Of a stretch of DNA of 64,000 nt, positions 1,221 through 59,343 are shown in pieces; the stretch's first letter is position 1; every line of letters starts with the position of its first letter. The position numbers and the translations under genes were made by a program. The stretch spans positions 121,841-185,840 of the forward strand of contig JAQTLZ010000002.1 in assembly GCA_028714635.1 (NCBI GenBank). Direction: 5' to 3'. The stretch is from Minisyncoccota bacterium (GTDB lineage: Bacteria > Patescibacteriota > Minisyncoccia > Phycocordibacterales > JAQTLZ01). The notes under the pieces were generated by a model. That model had not been told where the DNA came from. It ran no database searches and worked only from the letters and a program-made list of their open reading frames with translations.

Positions 1221-1292
1221 GGTGGCTATGGTGTAGCGGCAGCACAAGAGCTTGTGGAGCTTTTAGTCTGGGTTCAACTCCCAGTAGCCACC
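1221..1292 (+). tRNA. tRNA-His (anticodon GTG) with genome-encoded G-1
   Basis: Manual fold: G-1 pairs with discriminator C1292; 7-bp acceptor stem GTGGCTA/TAGCCAC; D-stem GTGT/GCAC; anticodon stem AGAGC/GCTTT with loop TTGTGGA (anticodon GTG); T-arm CTGGG-TTCAACT-CCCAG. CCA is not fully encoded. Confidence 0.8.
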
Positions 1293-1301
1293 CAAGGAAA
1301 C

Positions 1302-1326
1302 AAAACAGCCGAAAGGCTGTTTTGTC
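1302..1326 (+). terminator. Intrinsic terminator-like hairpin after tRNA-His
   Basis: AAAACAGCC-GAAA-GGCTGTTTT stem-loop (GNRA-type loop) followed by TTTTGTCTT. Confidence 0.65.
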
Positions 1327-1328
1327 TT

Positions 1329-1466
1329 GGGTGGCTAAGTGAGCAACCAAGGTTGCTCACGTCTGGGAGTTGAAGCCCGATTGAGCACACCGCCCTTTTA
1401 AAACAAAAGGGCGGGGTCCAATCGGGGTACTGCTTCTGTAAGAAGCGACATCCCCAGTAGCCACCC
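1329..1466 (+). ncRNA. tRNA-His-derived, highly structured RNA-like element (138 nt), function unknown
   Basis: A 9-bp terminal helix GGGTGGCTA/TAGCCACCC and the helix CTGGG/CCCAG copy the acceptor and T stems of the adjacent tRNA. Three perfect internal hairpins (1339-1360, 1390-1414, 1432-1446) and an 8-bp long-range helix (1376-1383/1419-1426). The 15-nt block CCCAGTAGCCACCCA is identical to the tRNA 3' end. Confidence 0.35.
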
Positions 1467-1545
1467 AAACAAAACATGTAACCAGTCTCTCGGTATTTCG
1501 TCATTTTGAGTAAAGGTCGCATTACTCAATTCTTAGAAAAAAACT

Positions 1546-2726: not shown

Positions 2727-3809
2727 ATGCATCTTCACAGGATTACCCACACTCTCGAGAAATATGAACGGCATATCTCATCAGGAATGCTCGTTTTTGG
2801 ATTTATTTTCGATTCGCTGACGCTTACTCGAATCGATAAATCTCGCGATCATATTATTCTTGCTTTCTATCTACTTCTCGTTCTTCTCTGTATATTTTTT
2901 GTAAATCTTTTTGAAGAGCGCCAATTAAAGGCGGGATTCCTGGAGAAAGCCCAGCCGTGGCTTCTCTTTGCAATCCAGTTTTCTTTCGGAGGACTTTTCA
3001 GCAATTTTATAATTCTTTACGCAAGAAGCGCTTCTTTTCTCTCAAGCTGGCCTTTTCTTCTCCTGCTTTTCGGGCTTCTTGTTGGAAATGAATTTTTCAA
3101 ACGACATTACGCTCGTTTTGCCTTTCACATGAGCGTGTTTTTTGTCGCTCTTTTTTCCTTCCTTATCTTCTTCATTCCTGTTGTCCTGAAACAGATGAGC
3201 GGAAGCATTTTCTTTTTGAGCGGACTTACTACTGTCGTCCTCTTTTTATTTGTCATGTACGAACTGTCTCGGTTTTTTCCGGAAAGGATTGAAGACAGCA
3301 AGAGGACGCTTACATTTAGCATAAGCATCATTTTTCTTCTCATTAACGTTCTTTATATTACAAATATCATCCCGCCTATTCCGCTTTCTTTAAAGGAGAT
3401 TGGTGTTTTTCATTCCATCTATCGCAAAAGCAGTACTGAATTTATAGTGCTTAGCGAAGAGCAAAAAGGATATGCATTCTTGCGTTCCTCCGACACGGTG
3501 AGTTTGAAGGAGGGCGAACCCGCGTATGTGTTATCGGCCGTTTTTGCCCCGACTGGCCTGTCTGTGAAAATCATCCATGATTGGCAATATTATGATGAGA
3601 AAGAGGGATGGGTATCTTCCGCGAAAATTCCTCTTACTGTGGTCGGAGGTCGGGAAGGAGGGTACCGTGTTTATTCAAAAAAGGAGAACATTTCACCAGG
3701 ACTTTGGAGAGTGAACGTAGAGACAGAGCGCGGGCAGGTGGTCGGTAAGATGAAATTTCTTGTTGAAAGAGTAACGACAAGCCCGCAACTCGAGTCTTCT
3801 TTGCGTTAA
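2727..3809 (+). CDS. Polytopic membrane protein with C-terminal DUF2914-like beta domain
   Basis: Multiple hydrophobic helices over ~230 aa, then a soluble C-terminal domain (WQYYDEKEGW...GGREGGYRVYSKK...GLWRVNVETERGQVVG). Confidence 0.8.
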   Translation: MHLHRITHTLEKYERHISSGMLVFGFIFDSLTLTRIDKSRDHIILAFYLLLVLLCIFFVNLFEERQLKAGFLEKAQPWLLFAIQFSFGGLFSNFIILYARSASFLSSWPFLLLLFGLLVGNEFFKRHYARFAFHMSVFFVALFSFLIFFIPVVLKQMSGSIFFLSGLTTVVLFLFVMYELSRFFPERIEDSKRTLTFSISIIFLLINVLYITNIIPPIPLSLKEIGVFHSIYRKSSTEFIVLSEEQKGYAFLRSSDTVSLKEGEPAYVLSAVFAPTGLSVKIIHDWQYYDEKEGWVSSAKIPLTVVGGREGGYRVYSKKENISPGLWRVNVETERGQVVGKMKFLVERVTTSPQLESSLR

Positions 3810-3851: not shown

Positions 3852-5030
3852 GTGAAAGATTTCATTCGCATTCTTAAATCGCTCATCTCGAAAAGAAATA
3901 TTGCCGGGATGTGCGGATTATTTCTCTTCGGCCTTTTTTTCTTTGGTTTTAGCGCGTTTCATCCGAAAGTTCCTGTGGTAGCGGAGCAAAAAGAAATTGA
4001 TCTGGAAAAAGAAGATCCGAAAACGCTTGTGAAAGCGGTGCGATCCGCCCAAGCTGTTAAAAAGGAAAAATATCTGGTTTCAGCCTCTACTCCGCAATTT
4101 GTACTCCTTTCTTTTGATGGTTCGAAATCAGTAGATATGCTTCGCGAGACCTTGGATTTTGAAAGTCTTCTCTCTCAAGAAGGAAAACCGCTTCACTTCA
4201 CCTATTTCATCAACGCTGCCTATTTTCTAGGCCAGGGTTCCGCGTACTTGTATCAAGCTCCGGGACAGCCGGCGGGGAAATCGCTCATCGGTTTTTCTGA
4301 TTACGTGGCAGACATCTCCCTGCGAGTGGAGGGGTTTAATAAAGCGCTTGAGATGGGAAATGAAGTCGGCTCGCATCTTGCCGGGCATTTCAACGGCACG
4401 AGCTGGTCTGAAGCAGATTGGAAGCAGGAATTCAATTCTTTCAATCTGCTTCTTATAAATATGCAGAAAAATAATCCTTCAGTTTCCATACCGCAGGTGA
4501 ATTTCGGTCCCGATACTATCGTCGGACTTCGGGCGCCTGATTTGGGCGTGAATGCATCGCTCTATAAAGTGCTTCATGAGTATCATTTTCTGTATGACGC
4601 GAGCGGAGTAGCGTCGCTTTTGTCCCGAGATAATTGGCCGAAGAAAGATGGCTATGGGCTTTGGCATTTTCCGCTTGGCCGCGTATCTCTGGGGAAAAAT
4701 CATGTTTCGACGATTTCAATGGATTATAATTTATGGATGATGCAGTCCAATGTTCAGGAAGAGGCGGTAAAGGGGACAGAGCTTTGGCAAAAATATAAGG
4801 ATGATGTTGTTTCTGCCTATATGGATTATTTCAATTCTAATTTCGCCGAGAATCGCGCACCTGTTATTATTGGGCACCACTTCAATAAATGGAATGACGG
4901 GGTCTACTGGGAAGCGATGAAGACATTCGCCGAGAGTGTGTGCGGGCGGGAGAATGTGCGCTGTGTGACTTTTAAAGAGCTCGTAGAGTATTTAAATACA
5001 GAAGGTCCTCCACCTCTCGCAACTCAATAA
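3852..5030 (+). CDS. Polysaccharide deacetylase family protein (NodB/CE4 fold), membrane anchored
   Basis: N-terminal TM helix; SFDGS (TFDDG-like) motif, GSHLAGHF His motif, LRAPDLG motif. Start uncertain: GTG 3852 or ATG near 3909. Confidence 0.8.
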   Translation: MKDFIRILKSLISKRNIAGMCGLFLFGLFFFGFSAFHPKVPVVAEQKEIDLEKEDPKTLVKAVRSAQAVKKEKYLVSASTPQFVLLSFDGSKSVDMLRETLDFESLLSQEGKPLHFTYFINAAYFLGQGSAYLYQAPGQPAGKSLIGFSDYVADISLRVEGFNKALEMGNEVGSHLAGHFNGTSWSEADWKQEFNSFNLLLINMQKNNPSVSIPQVNFGPDTIVGLRAPDLGVNASLYKVLHEYHFLYDASGVASLLSRDNWPKKDGYGLWHFPLGRVSLGKNHVSTISMDYNLWMMQSNVQEEAVKGTELWQKYKDDVVSAYMDYFNSNFAENRAPVIIGHHFNKWNDGVYWEAMKTFAESVCGRENVRCVTFKELVEYLNTEGPPPLATQ

Positions 5031-17617: not shown

Positions 17618-17659
17618 CGTCGGGCTTTTTTCCTGAAATAATGAAAAAAGCCCGACGTA
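17618..17659 (+). terminator. 15-bp perfect hairpin (bidirectional terminator/attenuator) between nusG and rplK
   Basis: ACGTCGGGCTTTTTT-(12 nt)-AAAAAAGCCCGACGT. Preceded by a second A/T hairpin at 17587-17615. Confidence 0.6.
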
Positions 17660-17709: not shown

Positions 17710-18132
17710 ATGGCAAAGAAAGTAACAAAAAAATTGAAGCTTGTGATCGCCGGGGGAAAGGCAAACCCAGCTCCACCAATTGGCCCTGCGCTTGGTCAGG
17801 CTGGTATTAACATTGGGGAGTTCGTCACCAAGTTCAACGCTGCAACCAAGGATATGATCGGAGACCTCGTTCCCGTACAGGTTTTTGTATACGAAGACCG
17901 AACATTCTCTTTTGTCACCAAGACTCCTCCCGCATCGAGCCTTATCATGAAGGCGATCAAGATCGACAAAGGTTCAGGCAAGCCAAACACCTCAAAAGTA
18001 GGAAAGATCAGCCGAGCGCAGATCAAAGCAATTGCAGAAAAGAAACTTCCTGATTTGAATGCGAATGATTTGGCTGGGGCTATGAAGATTATTGAGGGAA
18101 GCGCCCGCTCAATGGGGGTTGATGTGATCTAA
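17710..18132 (+). CDS. rplK: 50S ribosomal protein L11
   Basis: Canonical L11: [21 protein letters not shown]. Confidence 0.95.
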
Positions 18133-18185
18133 ATCACATCAACCGACCTTTTGAGACAGAATTCCGCGTATGCGCGGAAATTATG

Positions 18186-18213
18186 TCCAAAAGGTGTACT
18201 GCTCCTGTAAGGA
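18186..18213 (+). repeat. Conserved 25-nt motif AAAGGTGTAC(T/A)GCTCCTGTAAGGAG, copy 1
   Basis: 24/25 nt identical to 45005-45032. Contains the small hairpin CTCCT-GTA-AGGAG. Confidence 0.5.
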
Positions 18214-18243
18214 GTTGATGTGATTGGATAAATAATGATAAAA

Positions 18244-18277
18244 AGCCCCGCGCCGTAAGGAGCGGGGCTTTTCTTTT
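18244..18277 (+). terminator. Intrinsic terminator after the rplK region
   Basis: GCCCCGC-(10 nt)-GCGGGGC then TTTTCTTTTT. Confidence 0.85.
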
Positions 18278-18297
18278 TCCTGTGATATAGTATTTTC

Positions 18298-20943
18298 ATG
18301 GAAAATTTTACTCCTAAAAATCCAGCCGAACTCGAACTTCAGCTCCAGAAGGCCAGCCAAACTCTTGGAGAATCTATTGCCGTTCCTTCTAAAATAGCAG
18401 ATACGCTTGGTATTTCTTTAGAAGACCTTAAGGTCAAGTTTCCTCGACGATACGAGGCGTATCTCAAGCTTATCCGAGCTGAGAAAAACAACCAGGAAAT
18501 TCCGCAAGAAGATCTCGAACATTTTCAAAAATGGATTCGAGCACTTAACAATCTTGATCGTTATATAGAATCACAAAAGACCGAAATCGGCAGAACCCTT
18601 CGTGAAAAACAAGTAGGCGTTTTCGAGGATATGAGGGATTTCGTGGAAGAGGGTGGCCAGGCTGGTTACGTTAAATTACCTACGGGATTTGGTAAGACTG
18701 TCATTTTCTCTCAATTCGTAGAGGCTCTTGGCTTACGTACACTTATCGCAGTCCCCAAGAAGAATCTTGTCCACCAAACAGCAAAAAGCCTTGAACGGTT
18801 CACTGATCTTGATGTTGGAAAACTGTATCAATATGCCAAAGAGCACGATAAGCCAGTGACGGTTAGTACATACCAATCGATGATAAAGGAAACTGAAGAT
18901 GGAGGATTAAAGCCGGAAGAGTACGACTGCCTTATCTTGGACGAAGCGCATAAAGCACTTGGGCCAAAAAGTGTTCACACCATTGAAAAGTTTGATCATG
19001 CGCTCCGGCTCGGATTCACAGCCACTCCGCAATATTCTGAAACAAAAGGAGTGCAAGATCTTTTGGAAACAGAAATCCACAGCATCTCGATCAAAGAGGC
19101 TGTGGACGATGGGGCGCTTTCCTCCTTTTCGGTCATTTTAGCAAGAACTAAAGTAGACCTTTCGAAAGTAAAGGTGAAATCTGACGGAGAATATGATGAA
19201 AAAGATTTGGAAAAAGCCATAAACGTAGCTTCCCGCAATATGGCTGCAATCAATCTTTATAAAAAGATGTTTAATGGAAAACACGCAATGGCCTATTGCG
19301 CTGGTGTCGAACATGCCCGGGAAGTTGCACGACTTTTCAACGAAGCTGGCATCAAAAGCGTAGCGGTCGCAGGTGAAGACCATCTTTCGGAAGAAGAAAT
19401 GTTGGATATCTTTGAAAAATTCCGTTCAGGAGAGATCAAAGTGATTACCAATGCTGATATTTTTGTCGAAGGATTCGATGAGCCGAAAGCTTCTGTGTGT
19501 CTCAATTTGCGCCCAACCGCATCACCGGTCGTGGCAGAACAGCGGGGCGGTAGAGTTTTGAGACTAGATCCTTCCGATGAGAATAAGCACGCGTTTATCG
19601 TTGACTTTGTTGATGAGGATGAGAAGGCAGATTCCATAAATATTTCTTTTGCAGAAGTTGCGGAAGCTTCTGAATTTCCTCCGAGGACAAACTCGCGTCT
19701 CGGAGAGGTCACTCCAGATCAAACTGAATCAGTTTCTCGCGAGAAAAGCGATATTGTCATCGAAGGGCTGGAGCTTGTAACTGATCCGAATGAAGTTATG
19801 AGGCTCGTACAGAACAAGGCGTCCAGAAAAAAAGGAACAAATGCCGAGCTAGAAGCTCAGGAAATACCGAAATGCCCGGAAGGATGGCTTGCCGTTTTGT
19901 ATTTTTCTGATGACCAACATAAAAAATATGGTTTAAAAAGATATATGGAACGTTCCATAATTTCTAGGGTAGAGCGCAAAAACGCGCATCTCTTCGGTCA
20001 ATTTAGAAGCGAGCGAAAAACGCAAGATACAGAGTGGTTTTTGTCGCCTGAAGCGCAGGCTCTTATTGAAAAGGATATGGCTTATCATGCGGGGTGGGAC
20101 TTGAAAGAGAGAGGATATACTTCTGGGCTTGAGCTCAGTAAAAGATTCGCTCTTTTTAGAGAAAAATTTCGACATTTGGAAGATGAAATATCAGAGGCGG
20201 ATCCGCAAGCGATAATTACCCGTACCTATCAGAGATTTTATTCTGCGGATGCAATAAAAGAAATTGAGGCTGTTTATGGCAAGTTTGCTCCAGAGGGATG
20301 GATTTATCGGGCGGATATCTTCCGTAAATATTTTGGCGGTAGTAAAACTGGGGGTGACGCAGGGAACAAGTTGGTGGAAAAGTTGAAGAAAGAGATGCCT
20401 GATGAAGTCGATGTGTTTGTGAATAGGCCAACTGGCCATAGTTTAGAGTTCTATTCGCCTCGTTTTGTTGAAGAGTTTGGGAAGAGAGATATAACCAGTG
20501 TCTACAAAAGCAAAGAAGAAAAAGCAAAGCGCATCGAGGATAAGAAGCGGGAAGGTCCTCCTTCGGGGTGGTTTCCTGTGAAAGATATTGTTATTTTGTG
20601 TCGAATTAAGGAACCTTTCCTCAGGCGCAAATTGAATGATATGGAGTTTTTGCACGATAATGAAATTAAAAATCTCGCTTTCGGCTTTAAGACGAACATA
20701 CTCTGTGCCACGGCAAAAATAATTCGCCAAATTATCCTGGATGATTGTAAACGTATCAAAACGGGAGAGCCGCCAGCTGGCTGGCAATCAACAGATGAGA
20801 TTTTACAGGCAAGAAGCTTAGAACTGCAAGATTTCTACTATAAACTTCTTTCTTTGCTGCCGACTCCAGAGACTATGAAGAGATATACAAAGAAAGGTGT
20901 CACTGACTACTATTTCAGTCCTGATTTTTTGGCAAAGTTATAA
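18298..20943 (+). CDS. SF2 DEAD/DEAH-box-type helicase with long C-terminal extension containing repeated PxGW modules
   Basis: Motif I GFGKTVIF, motif II LILDEAHKA, motif III GFTATP, motif VI QRGGRVLRL. C-terminal ~450 aa has four spaced P(E/S/A)GW motifs. Confidence 0.9.
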   Translation: MENFTPKNPAELELQLQKASQTLGESIAVPSKIADTLGISLEDLKVKFPRRYEAYLKLIRAEKNNQEIPQEDLEHFQKWIRALNNLDRYIESQKTEIGRTLREKQVGVFEDMRDFVEEGGQAGYVKLPTGFGKTVIFSQFVEALGLRTLIAVPKKNLVHQTAKSLERFTDLDVGKLYQYAKEHDKPVTVSTYQSMIKETEDGGLKPEEYDCLILDEAHKALGPKSVHTIEKFDHALRLGFTATPQYSETKGVQDLLETEIHSISIKEAVDDGALSSFSVILARTKVDLSKVKVKSDGEYDEKDLEKAINVASRNMAAINLYKKMFNGKHAMAYCAGVEHAREVARLFNEAGIKSVAVAGEDHLSEEEMLDIFEKFRSGEIKVITNADIFVEGFDEPKASVCLNLRPTASPVVAEQRGGRVLRLDPSDENKHAFIVDFVDEDEKADSINISFAEVAEASEFPPRTNSRLGEVTPDQTESVSREKSDIVIEGLELVTDPNEVMRLVQNKASRKKGTNAELEAQEIPKCPEGWLAVLYFSDDQHKKYGLKRYMERSIISRVERKNAHLFGQFRSERKTQDTEWFLSPEAQALIEKDMAYHAGWDLKERGYTSGLELSKRFALFREKFRHLEDEISEADPQAIITRTYQRFYSADAIKEIEAVYGKFAPEGWIYRADIFRKYFGGSKTGGDAGNKLVEKLKKEMPDEVDVFVNRPTGHSLEFYSPRFVEEFGKRDITSVYKSKEEKAKRIEDKKREGPPSGWFPVKDIVILCRIKEPFLRRKLNDMEFLHDNEIKNLAFGFKTNILCATAKIIRQIILDDCKRIKTGEPPAGWQSTDEILQARSLELQDFYYKLLSLLPTPETMKRYTKKGVTDYYFSPDFLAKL

Positions 20944-21024
20944 TTCTCGTCTTCGTCTATACTTATATAGACCAAGAATTTATCGTATATGTTAAACTAA
21001 TTCCATTATCATCTCTTTATTTTT

Positions 21025-43890: not shown

Positions 43891-44961
43891 ATGAACAATG
43901 AGCCCCAAAATACCCTCATTCATATCTCCACGGGCACGATCATTAAAAGTCTCCTGTTTATTATCCTTGTCCTCGCCCTCTATTTTTTAAGAGATATCGT
44001 TCTCATTATTTTGACGGCGATCGTCATTGCATCAGCTATTGAACCAGCGACTCGATATCTTGTAGAGAAAAAAATTCCTCGGACGTTCTCTGTCGTTATT
44101 CTCTATGTACTTGTTATTTTTGCTCTTGCAGCTGTCTTTTATTTCCTTCTACCGACCCTTCTTTCAGAGACGACAAGTTTCTTGGAGAGAATAAACTCCA
44201 TCGATGTCCTCGGATCTTTGAAAGAACAAGGAATACTCTCTCCTGACAATCCGCTCCAAGGCCTTTCTTCGCAGTTTAATCTGCAAGGAGTTATCGGCTC
44301 TGTTCGGGGAGTGGTGAACCAGTTTTCGAGCGGGTTCTTTAATACTGCAAGCATCCTTTTCGGTGGAGCGCTTTCTTTCATTCTCATATTCGTGCTCTCT
44401 TTCTATTTTGCGGTGCAGGAAGACGGAGTGGAAGATTTTCTTCAAGTAGCATCGCCTATTCGGTATAAAAATTATGTAACGGATTTGTGGAAGCGTTCAC
44501 AGAAGAAGATTGGCCTCTGGCTTCAAGGCCAGCTTCTTCTCGGGCTTCTTGTCGGAGTTTTGGATTTTCTTGGCCTTACTATTTTCGGAATTAAGCATGC
44601 GCTTCTTCTCGCGGTCCTCGCAGCACTTTTGGAGATCATTCCGCTTTTCGGCCCAATTCTCTCTGCAATTCCAGGTGTTGCTATCGCGTTTGTGAGCGGA
44701 GGTACCCCGCTTGCGCTTTTAGTGCTTGCTTTGTACGTCATTGTTCAGCAGTTTGAGAATCATCTCATCTATCCTTTGGTGGTAAACAAAATAGTGGGTA
44801 TTTCGCCGATTCTTGTTATCATTTCGCTCCTTGTCGGTTGGAGACTTGCGGGATTCCTTGGGGTGCTTCTTTCTGTCCCGGTCGCGGCGGTATTCATGGA
44901 ATACTATTCTGATGTGCGAAAGAATAAATTCGGGCACCTCACCAAGGTGAGGGAAGGGTAG
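43891..44961 (+). CDS. AI-2E family transporter (PerM/UPF0118)
   Basis: Eight hydrophobic segments; conserved GISPILVIISLLVGWRLAGFLGVLLSVP C-terminal region. Confidence 0.9.
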   Translation: MNNEPQNTLIHISTGTIIKSLLFIILVLALYFLRDIVLIILTAIVIASAIEPATRYLVEKKIPRTFSVVILYVLVIFALAAVFYFLLPTLLSETTSFLERINSIDVLGSLKEQGILSPDNPLQGLSSQFNLQGVIGSVRGVVNQFSSGFFNTASILFGGALSFILIFVLSFYFAVQEDGVEDFLQVASPIRYKNYVTDLWKRSQKKIGLWLQGQLLLGLLVGVLDFLGLTIFGIKHALLLAVLAALLEIIPLFGPILSAIPGVAIAFVSGGTPLALLVLALYVIVQQFENHLIYPLVVNKIVGISPILVIISLLVGWRLAGFLGVLLSVPVAAVFMEYYSDVRKNKFGHLTKVREG

Positions 44962-45004
44962 GGACCCGTCCCGCAAGACCTTGAGTGTTTTGTAATCAAA
45001 AAGC

Positions 45005-45032
45005 GAAAGGTGTACAGCTCCTGTAAGGAGGA
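45005..45032 (+). repeat. Conserved 25-nt motif, copy 2
   Basis: GCGAAAGGTGTACAGCTCCTGTAAGGAGG; 24/25 identical to copy 1 at 18186-18213. Lies in the 5' leader of metG. Confidence 0.5.
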
Positions 45033-45051: not shown

Positions 45052-46482
45052 ATGGCAGAAAAGAAATCCTTTTATATCACGACGACTCTTCCGTACGTGA
45101 ATTCTGATCCACATATCGGTTTTGCCGCGGAAATTGTACACGCTGATATTCTGGCTCGCTACGCGCGTCTCATGGGCCAAAGCGTTTTCTTTAATACCGG
45201 TACGGATGAACATGGCATAAAAGTGTATCGAAAGGCCGAGGAAGAGGGAATTTCTACTCAAAAATATGTTGATGAAAAAGCAACGCATTTTGAAAGCCTA
45301 AAACTTTCTCTCAACTTGAGTTTCAATAGTTTTATTCGCACTACGGACGCGAAGCATAAAAAAGCGGCGGGAAGCTTTTGGGAGGCCTGTGCTGCTTCCG
45401 GCGACATCTACAAAAAAGCCTACAAAATTAAATATTGCGTCGGCTGTGAACTTGAAAAGACAGAATCGGAACTTATAAACGGCAGATGCGCGATACACCC
45501 GAATTTAGAGCTCGAGATTATTGAAGAAGAAAATTATTTTTTTAGATTTTCAAAATATCAGAAAGTGCTTCTGGATTTGTATGAAAAAAATCCAGAATTT
45601 GTTGTTCCGGCAACGCGTCTACACGAGATAAAAGCATTTGTTGAAAGGGGACTTGAAGATTTTTCAATTTCCCGTTTAAAAAGCAAAATGCCGTGGGGAG
45701 TGGATGTTCCTGGAGATGAAGAGCATGTTATGTACGTTTGGTTTGATGCACTTGTGAATTATATTGATGTTATCGGCTGGCCAGAAAATGAAACCGAATT
45801 TGCAAAATGGTGGCCAGGAATTCAAATCGCTGGGAAAGACAACCTTCGTCAGCAATCGGCAATGTGGCAGGCGATGCTTCTCTCCGCGGGGCTTCAAAAT
45901 TCAAAACAAATAATCCTTCGCGGGCACATAATTAGCGGCGGGCAAAAAATGTCCAAGTCCCTAGGCAATGTCATAAGCCCTACTGATCTGGTAAAAGAAT
46001 ACGGCACGGATGCTGTGCGCTATTTCCTTGCTAGGGAAGTGAATCCGTTTGAAGATAGTGATGTAACGCTCGAGCGTATTAAAGAAGCCTATAACGCGAA
46101 TCTTGCGAATGGCTTGGGGAATCTCGTCGCTCGAATAATGAAAATGGCACAAACAAATTTAGAAAAGGCGCCGAAAATTCCAGAGGATCCAATCCCAGAA
46201 ATATTTAAAAAAGCCATTGAAAAATACGATATAAAAACCGCGGCGGACTACGTATGGAAAGAAATCGCGGTGCTTGATTCGATCATTCAAGAAGAAGAGC
46301 CGTTCAAGCTTATAAAAACGAACAAAGCAGAGGCGATAACCATTATTGAAGATCTCTGCGTCCGTCTCTACACAATCGGCAGAATGTTAAATTCAATATT
46401 GCCCGAAACGTCAGAAAAAATTAAATCCGCGGTGAAGGCAAACAAAATGCCCGAAGTTTCTCTTTTTCCGAGGAAGGAATAA
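45052..46482 (+). CDS. metG: Methionyl-tRNA synthetase
   Basis: PYVNSDPHIGFA (HIGH-type), zinc knuckle CVGCE...CAIH, KMSKSLGN. Start set at MAEKK (45052); the ORF track extends to 45010. Confidence 0.95.
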   Translation: MAEKKSFYITTTLPYVNSDPHIGFAAEIVHADILARYARLMGQSVFFNTGTDEHGIKVYRKAEEEGISTQKYVDEKATHFESLKLSLNLSFNSFIRTTDAKHKKAAGSFWEACAASGDIYKKAYKIKYCVGCELEKTESELINGRCAIHPNLELEIIEEENYFFRFSKYQKVLLDLYEKNPEFVVPATRLHEIKAFVERGLEDFSISRLKSKMPWGVDVPGDEEHVMYVWFDALVNYIDVIGWPENETEFAKWWPGIQIAGKDNLRQQSAMWQAMLLSAGLQNSKQIILRGHIISGGQKMSKSLGNVISPTDLVKEYGTDAVRYFLAREVNPFEDSDVTLERIKEAYNANLANGLGNLVARIMKMAQTNLEKAPKIPEDPIPEIFKKAIEKYDIKTAADYVWKEIAVLDSIIQEEEPFKLIKTNKAEAITIIEDLCVRLYTIGRMLNSILPETSEKIKSAVKANKMPEVSLFPRKE

Positions 46483-57399: not shown

Positions 57400-59343
57400 A
57401 TGAATTATAAAACAAAGAGAGTAGTTGCAGGAGTTCTCGGTTTGGCAATGGCAGTCTCAATGGTTGCTGCTGCTGGAGGAGCTCTTACAGCTTTGGCTTC
57501 GTTCGACGTAAACCTTACTGTCGGCTCAACAGGAGCAGATGTAACGGCACTTCAAAACTGGCTTATTGAGAACGGATTTCTCAGTATCCCAGCTGCGACT
57601 GGCTACTTCGGTCCTTTGACCCAATCAGCAGTTGCTGCTTATCAGACAAGTGTTGGTATTACACCAGCAGCTGGTTATGTAGGTCCAATCACTCGAGCTA
57701 AGCTCAACGCGGGCGGTTCAGTTTCTGGAAACTTCCCAGCAGGTTGTACAAGCGCTTCAGGTTACAGCAGTGTAACAGGATTGCCTTGCGCACCGATTGG
57801 TTTCCCAGCAGGATGTACTTCAGCTTCAGGATTTAGTTCAACAACTGGACAGCCATGTTCGGGTGGTGGATCTTTCCCAGCAGGATGTACTTCAGCTTCA
57901 GGATTTAGCACAACAACCGGAATGTCATGTTCTGGCGGTTCATCAGGAGGTGGTTCACTTTCTGGTGGCGCAGGTGAAATAACAGTAACTGCTAAGACAG
58001 CTGGTACAGAAACCACTGTTGGCGAAGGAAAAGAGGAAAAGGTCCTCGGTATGGAGATAGAGGCTGATGATAACTCTGATGCTGAAATCACTTCTATGCG
58101 ACTTATCGCTACTGTTGACACCGATGGAGCAACAAGATTCAACCGATATGTTGACGAAGTAAAGGTATATATGGGAAGCAAAGAGGTAGGTTCATTGGAT
58201 TCATCTGATTTCTCACGAGATGCAGCTGAATTCACTGGAACCATTTCTCTCCATGGTGCCGTCGTACAGAAAGGCGAGAAAGTTCGATTCTATGTCGCTT
58301 TTGTCGCTAACAACATTATTGATTCTGATGATCTAGACAATACGATCAATCTCGTCGTAAGTCGAATCCGATTTACTGACGCTACAGGAGCAATCCTCAC
58401 AAATGAGGACATTGATACTGATGATGTGACCGTATCTTTCGAAGACGCAACAGAAAGTGATGGAGCAAAGGTGCAATCAGACTCTTCTACACCTGATGCA
58501 CAGATTTTGAAAGTTGAAGATAATAGTAGTTCAGAAGAATACCATATCTTCTCATTCAAGATTAAGTCAGACTCAGGCGCATCTGATATGGAGGTCACAT
58601 CGCTTCCTATCAACCTCTCAATCTACAACGCATCTACTACAGCTATCAACACGGAAGACTTGATTGATGATATGTATGTGATGATTGGTGGAAAGAAGTA
58701 TGATGATTACACATTCGACAACACAAGTATTGCTACAGCTAGTACAGAGACCGCTATAGCTACCTTCACCATAGACGAAGGAGATCTAACAGTTGACGGT
58801 GGTACTACTGAGCAAGCTAAGGTGTACGTCAAATTCGGTAGACAAGAAGACAAATACGCTGCTGCTGATACAACAGTTACAGCTTCTGTCGTCGGTTCTA
58901 CTATTGACGCAGAAAACTCTAACGGTGATACCATTGACTTGACTGGTACTGTCACTGGAAAGACAATGACAGCTGCTATTTCTGCTGCTGAAGTCACAGA
59001 CTTCACTTGGGCAGTAGGAACTGGCGGAACATACATAGACTTCTTCTTCACAGTAACAGCTGGCGATGAAGACTTCGATGTTCTTACAGCAAGCATTGCT
59101 TCTTCTACATCTGGTAATGCAACAACATCTTCTGGAACTCTCACAAAGAGCTCTGGCGATGATGTAACTAGCATTTCAGGAGGATTCACTGTCGCTTCTG
59201 GAGATACAACAACGTTCAAAGTTAGATACTTGGTAACAGGTTCTAACGGAACAATCTCAACAGTAACGATTACTTCTGTGGCTGGACAAGAGGTACCTGA
59301 CAACAAACAGGAATCTCCTACAGCAACAAGAAACGTTTACTAA
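57400..59343 (+). CDS. Cell-surface protein: signal peptide + PG_binding_1-like domain + three Cys-containing 20-aa repeats + Thr/Ser/Asp-rich beta region (S-layer-like candidate)
   Basis: Signal peptide. GSTGADVTALQNWLIENGF...GYFGPLTQSAVAAYQ resembles a peptidoglycan-binding domain. Three FPAGCTSASG(F/Y)S..TG.(P/S)C repeats. Translationally efficient codon choice (GCT/ACT/GGT/GAC). Two tandem terminators follow. Confidence 0.9.
   Translation: MNYKTKRVVAGVLGLAMAVSMVAAAGGALTALASFDVNLTVGSTGADVTALQNWLIENGFLSIPAATGYFGPLTQSAVAAYQTSVGITPAAGYVGPITRAKLNAGGSVSGNFPAGCTSASGYSSVTGLPCAPIGFPAGCTSASGFSSTTGQPCSGGGSFPAGCTSASGFSTTTGMSCSGGSSGGGSLSGGAGEITVTAKTAGTETTVGEGKEEKVLGMEIEADDNSDAEITSMRLIATVDTDGATRFNRYVDEVKVYMGSKEVGSLDSSDFSRDAAEFTGTISLHGAVVQKGEKVRFYVAFVANNIIDSDDLDNTINLVVSRIRFTDATGAILTNEDIDTDDVTVSFEDATESDGAKVQSDSSTPDAQILKVEDNSSSEEYHIFSFKIKSDSGASDMEVTSLPINLSIYNASTTAINTEDLIDDMYVMIGGKKYDDYTFDNTSIATASTETAIATFTIDEGDLTVDGGTTEQAKVYVKFGRQEDKYAAADTTVTASVVGSTIDAENSNGDTIDLTGTVTGKTMTAAISAAEVTDFTWAVGTGGTYIDFFFTVTAGDEDFDVLTASIASSTSGNATTSSGTLTKSSGDDVTSISGGFTVASGDTTTFKVRYLVTGSNGTISTVTITSVAGQEVPDNKQESPTATRNVY

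Follow-up and report, generated by a model that had tools for sequence, protein, structure and literature searches.

The question raised by this locus was what is represented by a 25-nt motif found both downstream of rplK and directly in front of metG. In the window (the whole 64,000-nt stretch of DNA analysed), the pattern AAAGGTGTACWGCTCCTGTAAGGAG had exactly two matches, at 18190-18214 (+) and 45006-45030 (+), which were 24/25 identical and were matched in 0/100 dinucleotide shuffles; the repeat reported in the original prediction was therefore real and located at the right two sites, while its coordinates (18186-18213 and 45005-45032) were off by a few bases. The gene names nusG, rplK, SF2 helicase, AI-2E transporter, and metG were confirmed, as were the surroundings of the two copies: copy 1 was flanked by the palindrome CCGCGTATGCGCGG (18164-18177) on one side and by a terminator-like hairpin plus T tract (18245-18278) on the other, and copy 2 lay just 5' of metG, with its 3' end 21 nt before the ATG at 45052. 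The count of only two visible copies was incomplete: a third one, ATCGGGGTACTGCTTCTGTAAGAAG, was present at 1421-1445 (+), and its hairpin CTTCT/AGAAG represented a compensatory change relative to CTCCT/AGGAG elsewhere. A covariance model of the core recovered exactly these three copies in the window (65, 59, and 51 bits), the runner-up match having 10 bits.

The conservation was found at the nucleotide rather than the peptide level, as had been proposed. The peptide reading (GTG TAC WGC TCC TGT AAG GAG, in the metG frame in copy 2) was rejected, since copy 3 had no start codon and most copies had a TGA in the metG-type frame (ACCTTTTGAG).

Architecture and covariation of the element

Within a three-stem element that sits where the gene upstream has its 3' end, the 25-mer covers the 3' strand of P2, J23, and P3; it made up the 3' third, and the most conserved part, of this larger unit, and was accordingly no longer regarded as an RNA motif or protein-binding site in its own right. 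The element was roughly 85-170 nt in length, contained no ORF, and had stems P1, P2, and P3 joined at a junction, with the 5'-to-3' order P1a, loop, IR, J12 (1-4 nt), P2, J23, and P3: (i) P1a duplicated the final 10-35 nt of the target gene (T-loop through 3' end on tRNA targets, and last codons plus stop codon on protein genes); (ii) IR was the inverted complement of P1a, from which it was separated by a spacer of 4 to 12 nt or by whole hairpins; (iii) P2 was a long covarying hairpin; (iv) J23, which was invariant among pattern matches, had the consensus R-N-R-C-N-G, usually GUACWG, with position 3 being usually A in diverged copies; and (v) P3 was a 5-bp stem with a GUA loop, giving the 3' end of the element (...GTAAGGAG). 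The predicted hairpin CTCCT-GTA-AGGAG was borne out, its stem covarying fully in diverged copies around an invariant GUA loop. A second form, exemplified by copy 2 of the window, had P1 as a self-contained hairpin preceded by GGUGAG, and the arrangement GGTGAG-hairpin-CGCAAG recurred in about 32 copies.

Among 54 homologues, P2 displayed both-side changes at 14/16 pairs, and 90% of its cells were paired versus 40-61% when the partners were slid; the observed P2 covariation was reached by 0/500 shuffles. P1 covaried with its target in six rplK loci, and fold z-scores ranged from -3.3 to -9.8. The IR-complementary run was longer toward the upstream than the downstream copy in 66/86 copies, and G-U versus A-C mismatches, counted as a test for RNA-level selection, amounted to 29 versus 20.

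Insertion of the element at three sites in the window

Copy 1, located at the 3' end of rplK, had the following features:

18117-18128 (+): P1a, also DR1, GGTTGATGTGAT; last rplK codons, the element-borne replacement 3' end
18129-18132 (+): P1 loop CTAA, holding the present rplK stop codon (18130-18132); assigned from sequence and fold
18133-18144 (+): P1b or IR, the proposed guide, ATCACATCAACC
18146-18195 (+): P2, ACCTTTTG...CAAAAGGT
18196-18201 (+): J23, GTACTG
18202-18214 (+): P3, CTCCT-GTA-AGGAG, the 3' end of the element
18214-18231 (+): DR2, GTTGATGTGATTGGATAA, the displaced resident rplK 3' end, encoding VDVIG*
18245-18278 (+): terminator-like hairpin GCCCCGC...GCGGGGC plus T tract; context, outside the element

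P1a paired perfectly over 12 bp with 18133-18144, and this P1a/IR arrangement was found, with compensatory changes, in five other genomes. IR was complementary both to 18117-18128 and to downstream 18214-18224 (both folds very stable, z -9.2 and -7.6), and the palindrome noted earlier corresponded to the distal P2 hairpin CCGCG-TATG-CGCGG (18164-18177). The hairpin at 18245-18278 was treated as a terminator stem in Rfam alignments, and its position after copy 1 placed this copy inside the rplK transcription unit. No element was present after rplK in the relatives L122 and L123, whose rplK genes ended with GTGGATGTCATTGGATAA and GTAGATGTGATTGGATAA (best element score there, 9 bits), and these empty sites placed the insert boundary at P1a. 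The L11 proteins of these relatives (96-98% identical, 141 aa) had the C-terminus VDVIG, which is exactly what the relic at 18214-18231 encodes, while the L11 of the window lacked the final Gly present in them. Next to copy 1 lay a distinct helicase insertion of 2.7 kb, itself flanked by repeats, indicating that duplicative recombination of imported DNA also occurs in this genome; such recombination might contribute to the repeats of the element.

Copy 2, located between the transporter gene and metG, was of the second form:

44946-44975 (+): 5' end GGTGAG plus closed P1 hairpin; assigned from recurrence in about 32 copies and from the fold
44976-45017 (+): J12 (AG), P2 (44978-45011, ACCTT...AAGGT), and J23 (GTACAG, 45012-45017); assigned from the covariance-model match
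45018-45030 (+): P3, CTCCT-GTA-AGGAG, 21 nt 5' of the metG ATG (45052)

The covariance-model match spanned 44971-45030 (50.8 bits). The transporter ORF now ended at TAG 44959-44961 within the P1 loop, and its C-terminal Ala was replaced by VREG; in the relatives L124 and L126, with neighbor genes 84-86% identical, the transporter ORFs ended with ..KA* and were followed after 4-14 nt by metG without the element, so that copy 2 could not be upheld as a metG leader feature. Copy 2 had no recognizable displaced repeat, and its right boundary could not be fixed.

Copy 3, located at the tRNA-His gene, had the following features:

1273-1310 (+): P1a, comprising T-loop, T-stem 3' strand, acceptor 3' strand, and trailer of the functional tRNA-His
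1315-1374 (+): IR in two parts (1315-1337 and 1363-1374), with an extra hairpin (1339-1360) between them
1376-1445 (+): core, composed of P2 1376-1426 (CCCGATTG...CAATCGGG), J23 GTACTG 1427-1432, and P3 CTTCT-GTA-AGAAG 1433-1445
1446-1476 (+): DR2, CGACATCCCCAGTAGCCACCCAAACAAAACA, the displaced resident tRNA-His 3' half

The covariance-model match spanned 1369-1445 (58.7 bits), and the P2 base and P3 displayed compensatory changes relative to copies 1 and 2. The probable insert start was C56 at position 1275. Complementarity of IR extended over 1273-1310 and, in part, over 1452-1468 (fold z -9.2 to -9.8); TTCAACTCCCAG of the functional tRNA-His was the exact complement of 1363-1374. DR2 was closer to the resident CGACCCCCAGTAGCCACCCA of STB_34 than to the functional TTCAACTCCCAG of the window: the STB_34 tRNA-His, which carried no element, had the T-loop TTCGACC, and its T-loop and 3' half matched the displaced copy of the window, not the functional one. 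The tRNA-His was the only gene detected by ARAGORN, with no tmRNA or other tRNA-like gene.

All three window copies are insertions, and they were recently acquired at the 3' ends of three genes. Empty sites were found in genomes with 84-98% identical flanking proteins, namely in both relatives for copies 1 and 2 and in one relative for copy 3. As to the conservation at orthologous loci considered in the original prediction, the element was absent from these loci in the closest relatives but present after rplK in five more distant genomes, a pattern pointing to mobility and not to fixed regulation. The copies beside rplK in such distant genomes may be old ones that were inherited vertically and kept by selection. 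Each insertion was precise, in a single orientation, and at the 5' edge of the sequence matching P1a: the element started with a replacement of the 3' end of the target gene, paired to its inverted copy as P1, and the displaced resident end, recognizable for copies 1 and 3, directly followed P3. P1a of copies 1 and 3 differed from the resident ends that had been displaced. That the displaced copies are genuine ends of genes was shown by the DR1-DR2 differences, 18/22 of which fell at third codon positions (P = 4e-6), and by the retention of in-frame stop codons. Presence/absence polymorphism with precise boundaries between close relatives and multiple copies at different sites were thus both observed, as generically expected of a site-specific mobile element. 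An origin of the repeats by simple tandem duplication or by fixed-length target duplication was rejected, because it did not fit (i) the terminator half-sites and the donor-type T-loop of copy 3, (ii) a locus (L063) with unlike tRNA halves flanking one core, and (iii) the bias of repeat differences to third codon positions.

Distribution, targets, and dynamics

The expectation that more copies existed elsewhere was confirmed in related genomes by both the pattern search and the covariance model. The exact-pattern scan gave at least 120 loci versus about 2 expected (our own estimate), and all named loci belonged to Patescibacteria; 2.9 million viral contigs gave 0 matches. The covariance model gave 127 matches in 697 kb, and the density was about one copy per 20-25 kb. 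The copies favored gene 3' ends, and 55/125 had a tRNA gene within 300 nt; the 60 tRNAs near copies were co-oriented with them in 51/60 cases, and 40 were located upstream. Only about 9% of unselected tRNA genes carried a copy. Orientation relative to flanking or downstream protein genes was mixed among 125 copies.

Decayed, nested, and truncated copies were common: L063 represented a nested insertion with different tRNA halves on either side of one core, L019, L056, and L070 contained tandem arrays, and L025 harbored a truncated copy. Comparison of STB_28 with STB_34 revealed a rapid turnover of copies. Saccharibacteria and Paceibacteria shared near-invariant junction bases, which could point to a host function of the RNA rather than a purely selfish nature.

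The 936 ORFs of 120 loci were clustered, and the first 25 clusters, which were the most widely shared, were viewed by eye without profile annotation. No recurrent recombinase family was seen among these 25; they comprised housekeeping families (EF-G/EF-Tu, NusG, L11, and ABC ATPases) and a RAYT-like family present in six loci.

Proposed identity and rival explanations

Taken at a probability of roughly 0.7, this is an apparently undescribed, ORF-less, structured, and site-specific mobile element confined to Patescibacteria and probably targeted by base pairing. The element would insert at the 5' edge of a genomic match to P1a, its own P1a would complete the gene, and the resident gene end would be pushed to just 3' of P3, where it would still be able to pair with IR. 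The architecture suggests that IR acts as a base-pairing guide that chooses the target and positions either boundary at the junction, and that the conserved junction may serve as a recognition or catalytic center. A bolder version, which we put forward tentatively and consider doubtful, would make the element a self-contained guide-directed mobile nucleic acid, a ribozyme-like 'intron carrying its own exon' of ~100 nt and of a class not described before: the junction of the free form would hold the 5' end (P1a start) beside the 3' end (P3 end), IR would leave P1a to pair with a matching sequence in the genome or in a transcript, and the junction, either by its own catalysis or by directly recruiting some minimal activity of the host, would bring about cleavage and joining where the paired strand has its 5' edge.

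A host-serving structured RNA (a self-cleaving ribozyme, a tRNA-like processing or stability module, or a small RNA in tRNA operons or 3' UTRs), the duplication and spread of which would be secondary, is an unlikely account. The phylum-wide conservation of the junction and GUA loop and the covarying stems are typical of functional RNAs and small ribozymes, the two circularly permuted forms recall hammerhead and twister, copy 1 lies within the rplK transcription unit 5' of the terminator, copies are co-oriented with tRNAs, and rplK-downstream copies occur in six genomes; but the orthologous sites of close relatives were empty for all three window copies, which were therefore dispensable in those relatives, and the low occupancy of unselected tRNA genes, the frequent decay, nesting, and truncation, and the lack, at E up to 10, of a match to any ribozyme or other RNA family on record argue in the same direction.

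Tyrosine-integrase elements and their integrase-less derivatives target gene 3' ends, restore the gene, and leave a displaced copy. It is accordingly conceivable, but quite improbable, that the copies are att-site remnants or miniature cis-mobilizable elements of integrase islands at tRNA and ribosomal-protein 3' ends, the repeats being the integrase identity segment. Gene-end targeting, gene restoration, and the displaced copy are classic for such elements, and the tandem arrays in L056 and L070 look like accretion. Against this, (i) the conserved core of 60-80 nt lies between the inverted repeat and the displaced half and not outside a 6-8 bp crossover region, (ii) the P1a-IR spacer varies from 4 to 12 nt or to whole hairpins, (iii) the unit is only about 85-170 nt, (iv) no recombinase family stood out among the ORF clusters viewed by eye, and (v) viral contigs gave no matches.

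Y1 HUH enzymes recognize folded DNA and use short guide pairings, and recognition by structure plus guide is an established property of IS200/IS605. On this account, the copies would be single-stranded-DNA elements of the REP/REPIN type or of IS200/IS605 descent, mobilized in trans by a transposase of this kind (RAYT/TnpA), and the pairing of IR with the tRNA's own 3' half upstream, awkward in RNA, would be harmless in single-stranded DNA; RAYT-like genes were indeed present in 6/120 loci, one of them about 220 nt from the element. This account is nevertheless slightly harder still to sustain, since the RAYT-like gene at the one locus inspected (L065) was flanked by another palindrome, GTACGAGGTCCGACCTCGTAC, no RAYT-like gene was found in the 64-kb window, the guide pairings here span 9-30 nt and not 4-5, and IS200/IS605 elements neither duplicate nor replace target ends.

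A metG cis-regulatory leader or riboswitch, or a promoter/operator DNA site, is hardly credible: the distance of only 21 nt from the end of copy 2 to the metG start and the AAGGAGG within this copy speak for it, but metG of L124 and L126 has no element upstream, the other copies follow tRNA-His and rplK, the genes downstream are in mixed orientation, and a protein-binding DNA site fits poorly with three covarying helices over 60-80 nt.

Implications

Patescibacteria genomes are among the smallest bacterial ones, at about 1 Mb. The densities seen imply dozens of copies of the element per such genome, beside tRNA, ribosomal-protein, and aminoacyl-tRNA-synthetase genes. Duplicated 3' halves of tRNAs, altered C-termini (L11 and the transporter), and intergenic 'conserved motifs' encountered in annotation are accounted for by the element, and its covariance model can be used by annotators. 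It also serves as a marker of recent DNA exchange between lineages; the imported tRNA-His and rplK ends were unlike the resident ends. If the targeting by an IR guide is true, retargeting would take a change of about 10-30 nt, and if the junction is catalytic, the element would represent a new class of small ribozyme and a new mode of mobility.

Comparison with known families and systems

With Rfam 15 at gathering thresholds, only tRNA-His was detected in the window; at E up to 10, the surroundings of all three copies gave only terminator-driven or chance matches, the best being trpB (29 bits versus a threshold of 59). A phage origin was rejected for want of matches in viral contigs. Full-text literature searches gave no published description of the element, the nearest being group I introns in Patescibacteria tRNA genes (PMC13011429).

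MITEs such as Correia elements are likewise non-autonomous repeats of about 100 nt, often co-transcribed with neighbors, but the element has neither terminal inverted repeats nor a short fixed-length target duplication and is conserved by structure across the phylum rather than by sequence within a genus; its ends are GGTGAG... (or the target copy) and ...AAGGAG, and its flanking repeats are gene-end copies of 8-40 nt that can differ, so that assignment to MITEs was rejected. An integron attC site is an imperfect R''-L''/L'-R' palindrome with RYYYAAC and GTTRRRY cores, located in cassette arrays; P1 follows the target gene (tRNA T-arm or rplK end) rather than the attC consensus, and no cassette arrays were found. 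A CRISPR repeat or TnpB/Cas12-type guide scaffold was rejected as well, there being no arrays and no recurrent nuclease neighbor among the inspected ORF clusters; since P3 is followed by a duplicate of the neighboring gene's end, a guide of this type would be self-targeting.

REP/REPIN sequences and PATEs, the miniature derivatives of IS200/IS605, are simple hairpins with a guide of 4-5 nt that flank a Y1 HUH transposase gene or co-occur with one. IS200/IS605 ends, PATEs, and REP/REPINs resemble the element in being ORF-less, structured, multi-copy, intergenic, and recognized by shape, with cleavage sites defined by base-pairing guides and decoupled copies kept for long; the element differs in its three-way junction in place of simple hairpins, its guide of 9-30 nt, its replacement and duplication of the target end, and its phylum-wide conservation of junction bases. 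The att site of a tyrosine integrase has inverted core-binding sites around an overlap region of 6-8 bp, and the integrase is encoded in the element or elsewhere in the genome. Integrative elements targeting tRNA genes, and their integrase-less derivatives (CIMEs and islets), share with the element (i) insertion toward the 3' end of genes for tRNAs or ribosomal proteins, (ii) a replacement end keeping the gene intact, (iii) a displaced direct repeat left behind, and (iv) tandem pile-up; unlike them, the element is ORF-less, has a three-stem core between the inverted target copy and the displaced end, and has an exact boundary at the P3 end with no recognizable recombinase core site.

In the hammerhead, CUGAUGA and GAAA strands and an NUH cleavage site follow one another in this cyclic order around a three-way junction; it was rejected as an identity, since the junction strands of the element are (A)AG, GUACWG, and 0-2 nt, the cyclic order is reversed, and Rfam gave no match. 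Small self-cleaving ribozymes in general (hammerhead, twister, hatchet, HDV-like, and the tRNA-linked 'theta') agree with the element in size, junction-concentrated conservation, circular permutation, many copies per genome, and association with tRNAs and mobile DNA, although no Rfam ribozyme model matches its sequence or structure; in having its boundary where a helix strand has its 5' edge, the element is reminiscent of the sites cleaved in HDV-like and hatchet ribozymes.

In Patescibacteria, tRNA genes commonly harbor group I introns, while group II introns are reported to be absent (PMC13011429). The reading as a tRNA-gene intron, of group I or archaeal type, was rejected after in-silico excision, as ARAGORN detected 0 tRNAs across any junction among 45 boundary variants per copy; at tRNA sites, an intact tRNA lay upstream of the element and did not span the insert. 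A group I or II intron, which would have a conserved catalytic core (P3-P9 with a G-binding site, or domains I-VI), was likewise rejected, the core of the element being only about 50-80 nt and matching no Rfam intron model. The likeness to these introns extends to precise and oriented insertion into conserved genes including tRNAs, repeated invasion and decay, and an internal sequence complementary to the flanking exon; the element is far smaller and its guide pairs 3' of the insertion point, and, because a copy of the downstream 'exon' is carried within it, splicing is not needed.

Distribution of the motif in the window

The repeated 25-mer AAAGGTGTAC(T/A)GCTCCTGTAAGGAG marked an apparently undescribed, phylum-wide, ORF-less mobile element of unusual architecture. 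Its copies in the window were as follows, with NCBIfam confirming the genes around copies 1 and 2 (nusG, rplK, SF2 helicase, AI-2E-family transporter, and metG):

18117-18214: copy 1, after rplK (25-mer at 18190-18214, + strand)
44946-45030: copy 2, before metG (25-mer at 45006-45030, + strand)
about 1275-1445: copy 3, after tRNA-His (25-mer ATCGGGGTACTGCTTCTGTAAGAAG at 1421-1445)

The first two 25-mers shared 24/25 identity and had no match in any of 100 dinucleotide-preserving shuffles; the original prediction was right about this pair and its surroundings, with coordinates a few bases off. It had counted two visible copies, but searching for repeats and with a relaxed pattern recovered the third, the hairpin of which (CTTCT-GTA-AGAAG) displayed a compensatory C-G to U-A change. 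A covariance model recognized exactly three copies in the window (65 bits for copy 1, 59 for copy 3, and 51 for copy 2; runner-up 10 bits).

Structure of the element

Copy 3 lay within a very stable fold immediately 3' of tRNA-His (z = -9.8). Bases at the 5' end of the 25-mer paired with an upstream partner in copies 1 and 3, forming helix P2 (ACCTTTTG/CAAAAGGT and CCCGATTG/CAATCGGG, respectively). The aligned copies shared (i) J12, a short junction reading (A)AG or GAAG; (ii) P2, with its first three pairs conserved (NCC/GGN) and then a variable distal hairpin; (iii) J23, reading GUACWG; and (iv) P3, a 5-bp stem with a GUA loop. Across 54 sequences, 14 of 16 P2 pairs were changed on both sides, 90% of P2 cells were paired versus 40-61% with the partners slid, and the observed covariation was matched by 0/500 shuffles. 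Diverged copies found with the covariance model had a fully covarying P3 (CTCCT/AGGAG, TTCGT/ACGAA, AAACT/AGTTT, GTCGT/ACGAC, and others), an invariant GUA loop, and a J23 reduced to R-N-R-C-N-G with position 3 mostly A. The hairpin CTCCT-GTA-AGGAG noted from the sequence alone was real, and conservation was at the nucleotide level, as originally proposed; a stand-alone binding site had also been proposed, but the 25-mer was part of a larger three-stem structure.

The junction was closed by a third helix, P1, which existed in two permutations: (i) type A (window copy 2), composed of GGUGAG, a closed P1 hairpin, and CGCAAG; and (ii) type B (window copies 1 and 3), in which the inverted repeat IR, immediately 5' of J12, was complementary to the sequence directly after P3. 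At 44937-44952 (CCTCACC-AA-GGTGAGG), the transporter ORF could pair through its end with the GGTGAG 5' end of the element, which would offer copy 2 an alternative to its P1; copy 3 had a comparable hairpin, centred on ACCAAGGT, at 1339-1360.

Duplicated ends of the neighbouring genes

The sequence right after P3 in many copies repeated a sequence 70-170 nt upstream, and this upstream partner was the 3' end of the preceding gene: (i) tRNA 3' halves from the T-loop onward (Phe, Lys, Arg, Thr, Leu, Val, and His), (ii) the final codons of rplK, and (iii) the end of an unnamed ORF at locus L056. IR was the inverted complement of the same gene end. The element was located directly 3' of rplK in five other genomes (L11 57-66% identical to that of the window); in 5/5, IR was perfectly paired with the local last rplK codons, with the stop codon within the loop, and the downstream repeat (DR2) paired less well with IR than these codons did. 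A further locus, L025, contained a remnant of P1 and half of P2 only. In 66/86 copies, IR had a longer complementary run with the upstream copy than with the downstream one. Since IR tracked the upstream copy, the unit comprised P1a (the gene-end copy, DR1), loop, IR, and core (P2-J23-P3), with DR2 as an extra copy behind. DR2 retained reading frame and stop codon; third codon positions accounted for 18 of 22 differences between DR1 and DR2 (P = 4e-6), and both repeats at L101 encoded VKVVD*, five differences notwithstanding. In-silico deletion of the core never yielded a tRNA, which ruled out an intron interrupting an otherwise complete gene.

Empty sites in related genomes

A Candidatus Paceibacterota MAG carried an rplK identical to the window's. 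Orthologous loci for the empty-site comparison were taken from two related MAGs, STB_34 (GCA_028710915.1) and GCA_040384425.1. At the copy 1 site, the relatives' L11 (141 aa, C-terminus VDVIG) was 96-98% identical to that of the window, which ended VDVI; their rplK 3' ends (GTGGATGTCATTGGATAA and GTAGATGTGATTGGATAA) had an AT-rich spacer and a terminator directly behind, and no element was present at these loci (top covariance-model score 9 bits). The window read ...ATGGGG (GTTGATGTGATCTAA-ATCACATCAACC-G-P2-J23-P3) GTTGATGTGATTGGATAA..., i.e., a 96-nt unit ahead of a relic encoding VDVIG*. At the copy 2 site, a metG leader had been suggested, but both relatives carried the transporter gene (353 aa, ...KA*) and metG 4-14 nt on, without the element; the window insert started after ...ACCAAGG, and the transporter ORF now terminated KVREG* within the P1 loop. 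At the copy 3 site, STB_34 had the tRNA-His T-loop TTCGACC without the element; the T-loop of the functional window tRNA-His (TTCAACT) was the exact complement of IR, and the displaced copy CGACATCCCCAGTAGCCACCCA resembled CGACCCCCAGTAGCCACCCA of STB_34. The functional 3' half therefore arrived with the element, and the insertion was placed between T55 and C56. GCA_040384425.1 harbored a more complex, partly decayed element 3' of tRNA-His. STB_34, which lacked all three window copies, had its own at L128 1350-1425 (58.9 bits), 3' of tRNA-Leu and adjoining rplS; close relatives thus differed in their copy sets.

The SF2 helicase gene (881 aa) lay between imperfect 19-nt direct repeats TGTGATATAGTATTTTCAT (18281-18297) and TATGTTAAACTAATTCCAT (20987-21005), with a flanked span of 18298-20943, and was missing from the two close relatives, where the rplK terminator was followed by CTTGTGCTAAACTAATTACAT, a small ORF, and DHFR; this marked the gene as a distinct ~2.7-kb insertion that had duplicated its target. 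A 74-aa GIY-YIG ORF between nusG and rplK in STB_34 (L122 1215-1439), absent from the window, may be a free-standing homing-endonuclease-like insertion. The nusG-rplK spacer of the window had a near-perfect palindromic hairpin CGTCGGGCTTTTTTC...GAAAAAAGCCCGACG (17618-17657) that looked like a bidirectional terminator, and a 72-nt unit (family D1) was duplicated in tandem at 57801-57944 with 86% identity.

Abundance, host range, and genomic placement

An exact scan with GGNGTACWGCTYCTGTAAGRAG across one genome per species gave at least 120 loci, with ~2 expected by chance on our own estimate. All taxon-named loci among the matches listed were Patescibacteria (Paceibacterota, Saccharibacteria, Parcubacteria, and Kaiser-, Nomura-, Zambryski-, Taylor-, Lloyd-, and Azambacteria). 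The covariance model gave 127 matches in 100 fetched loci (697 kb), ~27 of them besides the anchor copies, and the density of model matches in these loci was ~1 per 20-25 kb, i.e., dozens per 1-Mb genome. There were no element matches in 2.9 million viral contigs, and Rfam 15 had no matching family, whether at gathering thresholds or, around each window copy, at E up to 10.

A tRNA gene lay within 300 nt of 55/125 copies; among 60 tRNAs near copies, 51 were co-oriented with and 40 upstream of the copy, and ~9% of the tRNAs not used in selecting loci carried a downstream copy. Flanking protein-coding ORFs were in mixed orientation relative to the element. Mobility was further indicated in L063, where a unit of tRNA-Leu half, IR, and core was nested exactly where P3 met a tRNA-Pro half, and by tandem units in L019, L056, and L070. 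Likewise, the tRNA-Lys-associated copy was wholly different between STB_28 and STB_34, with almost identical flanking tRNAs.

A second repeat family (hairpin, e.g., ATTTTTC-NNCAG-AAAAAT, then ATYYGTGAC) was found in L004, L046, L055, L062, L070, L105, and L110; it adjoined tRNA 3' halves at the T-loop (...GTGAC|CGATTCTC...) and was nested within the three-stem element in L019 (J23 of the second rplK-linked copy) and L069.

Insertion mechanism

Insertion was precise and oriented, at the 5' edge of sequence matching P1a; P1a restored the target gene, the resident gene end was displaced to directly after P3, and a conserved three-way junction was present where both element ends would meet. IR would act as a guide, pairing with P1a or the resident copy, and either pairing would bring the respective boundary to the same spot in the junction, for which the conserved J12, J23, and GUA loop may be the recognition or catalytic centre.

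Counts of G-U versus A-C mismatches did not tell RNA and DNA apart. Copy 1 was preceded by the rplK stop codon and followed by a terminator-like hairpin, as were the copies at three other rplK loci; the element was therefore transcribed at those loci, which kept models acting at the RNA level, and a possible role for the host, viable.

RAYT-like Y1 HUH genes (motifs YHVxNRG, MPNHFHLL, and YIHLNP) occurred in six loci among the 120 matches listed: L065 (3078-4007), L039, L085, L093, L067, and L001. The gene in L065, the one locus inspected, was flanked by a palindrome different from the element; several copies of this palindrome, GTACGAGGTCCGACCTCGTAC, surrounded it (repeats at ~3119-3270 and 4020-4106), and together they resembled a REP/RAYT system of Patescibacteria. 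Inspection by eye of 25 ORF clusters, without profile annotation, turned up no recognisable recombinase, reverse transcriptase, or other nuclease family.

Comparison with known systems

A full-text literature search found no description of the element; the nearest paper dealt with group I introns of tRNA genes in Patescibacteria and reported group II introns as absent from the phylum (PMC13011429). The element resembled (i) tRNA-targeting integrative elements in restoring the target gene and leaving the displaced end, (ii) homing introns in its precise insertion and its recurrent invasion and decay, (iii) IS200/IS605 and REP elements in reliance on structure and a guide, and (iv) small ribozymes in its size, its conserved junction, and its permuted forms; it failed each defining test of a known family that gave a clear result. 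It was rated as belonging among the miniature site-specific mobile elements; that it is both self-catalytic and guide-directed is a real, though less likely, possibility, and it would then be categorically new.
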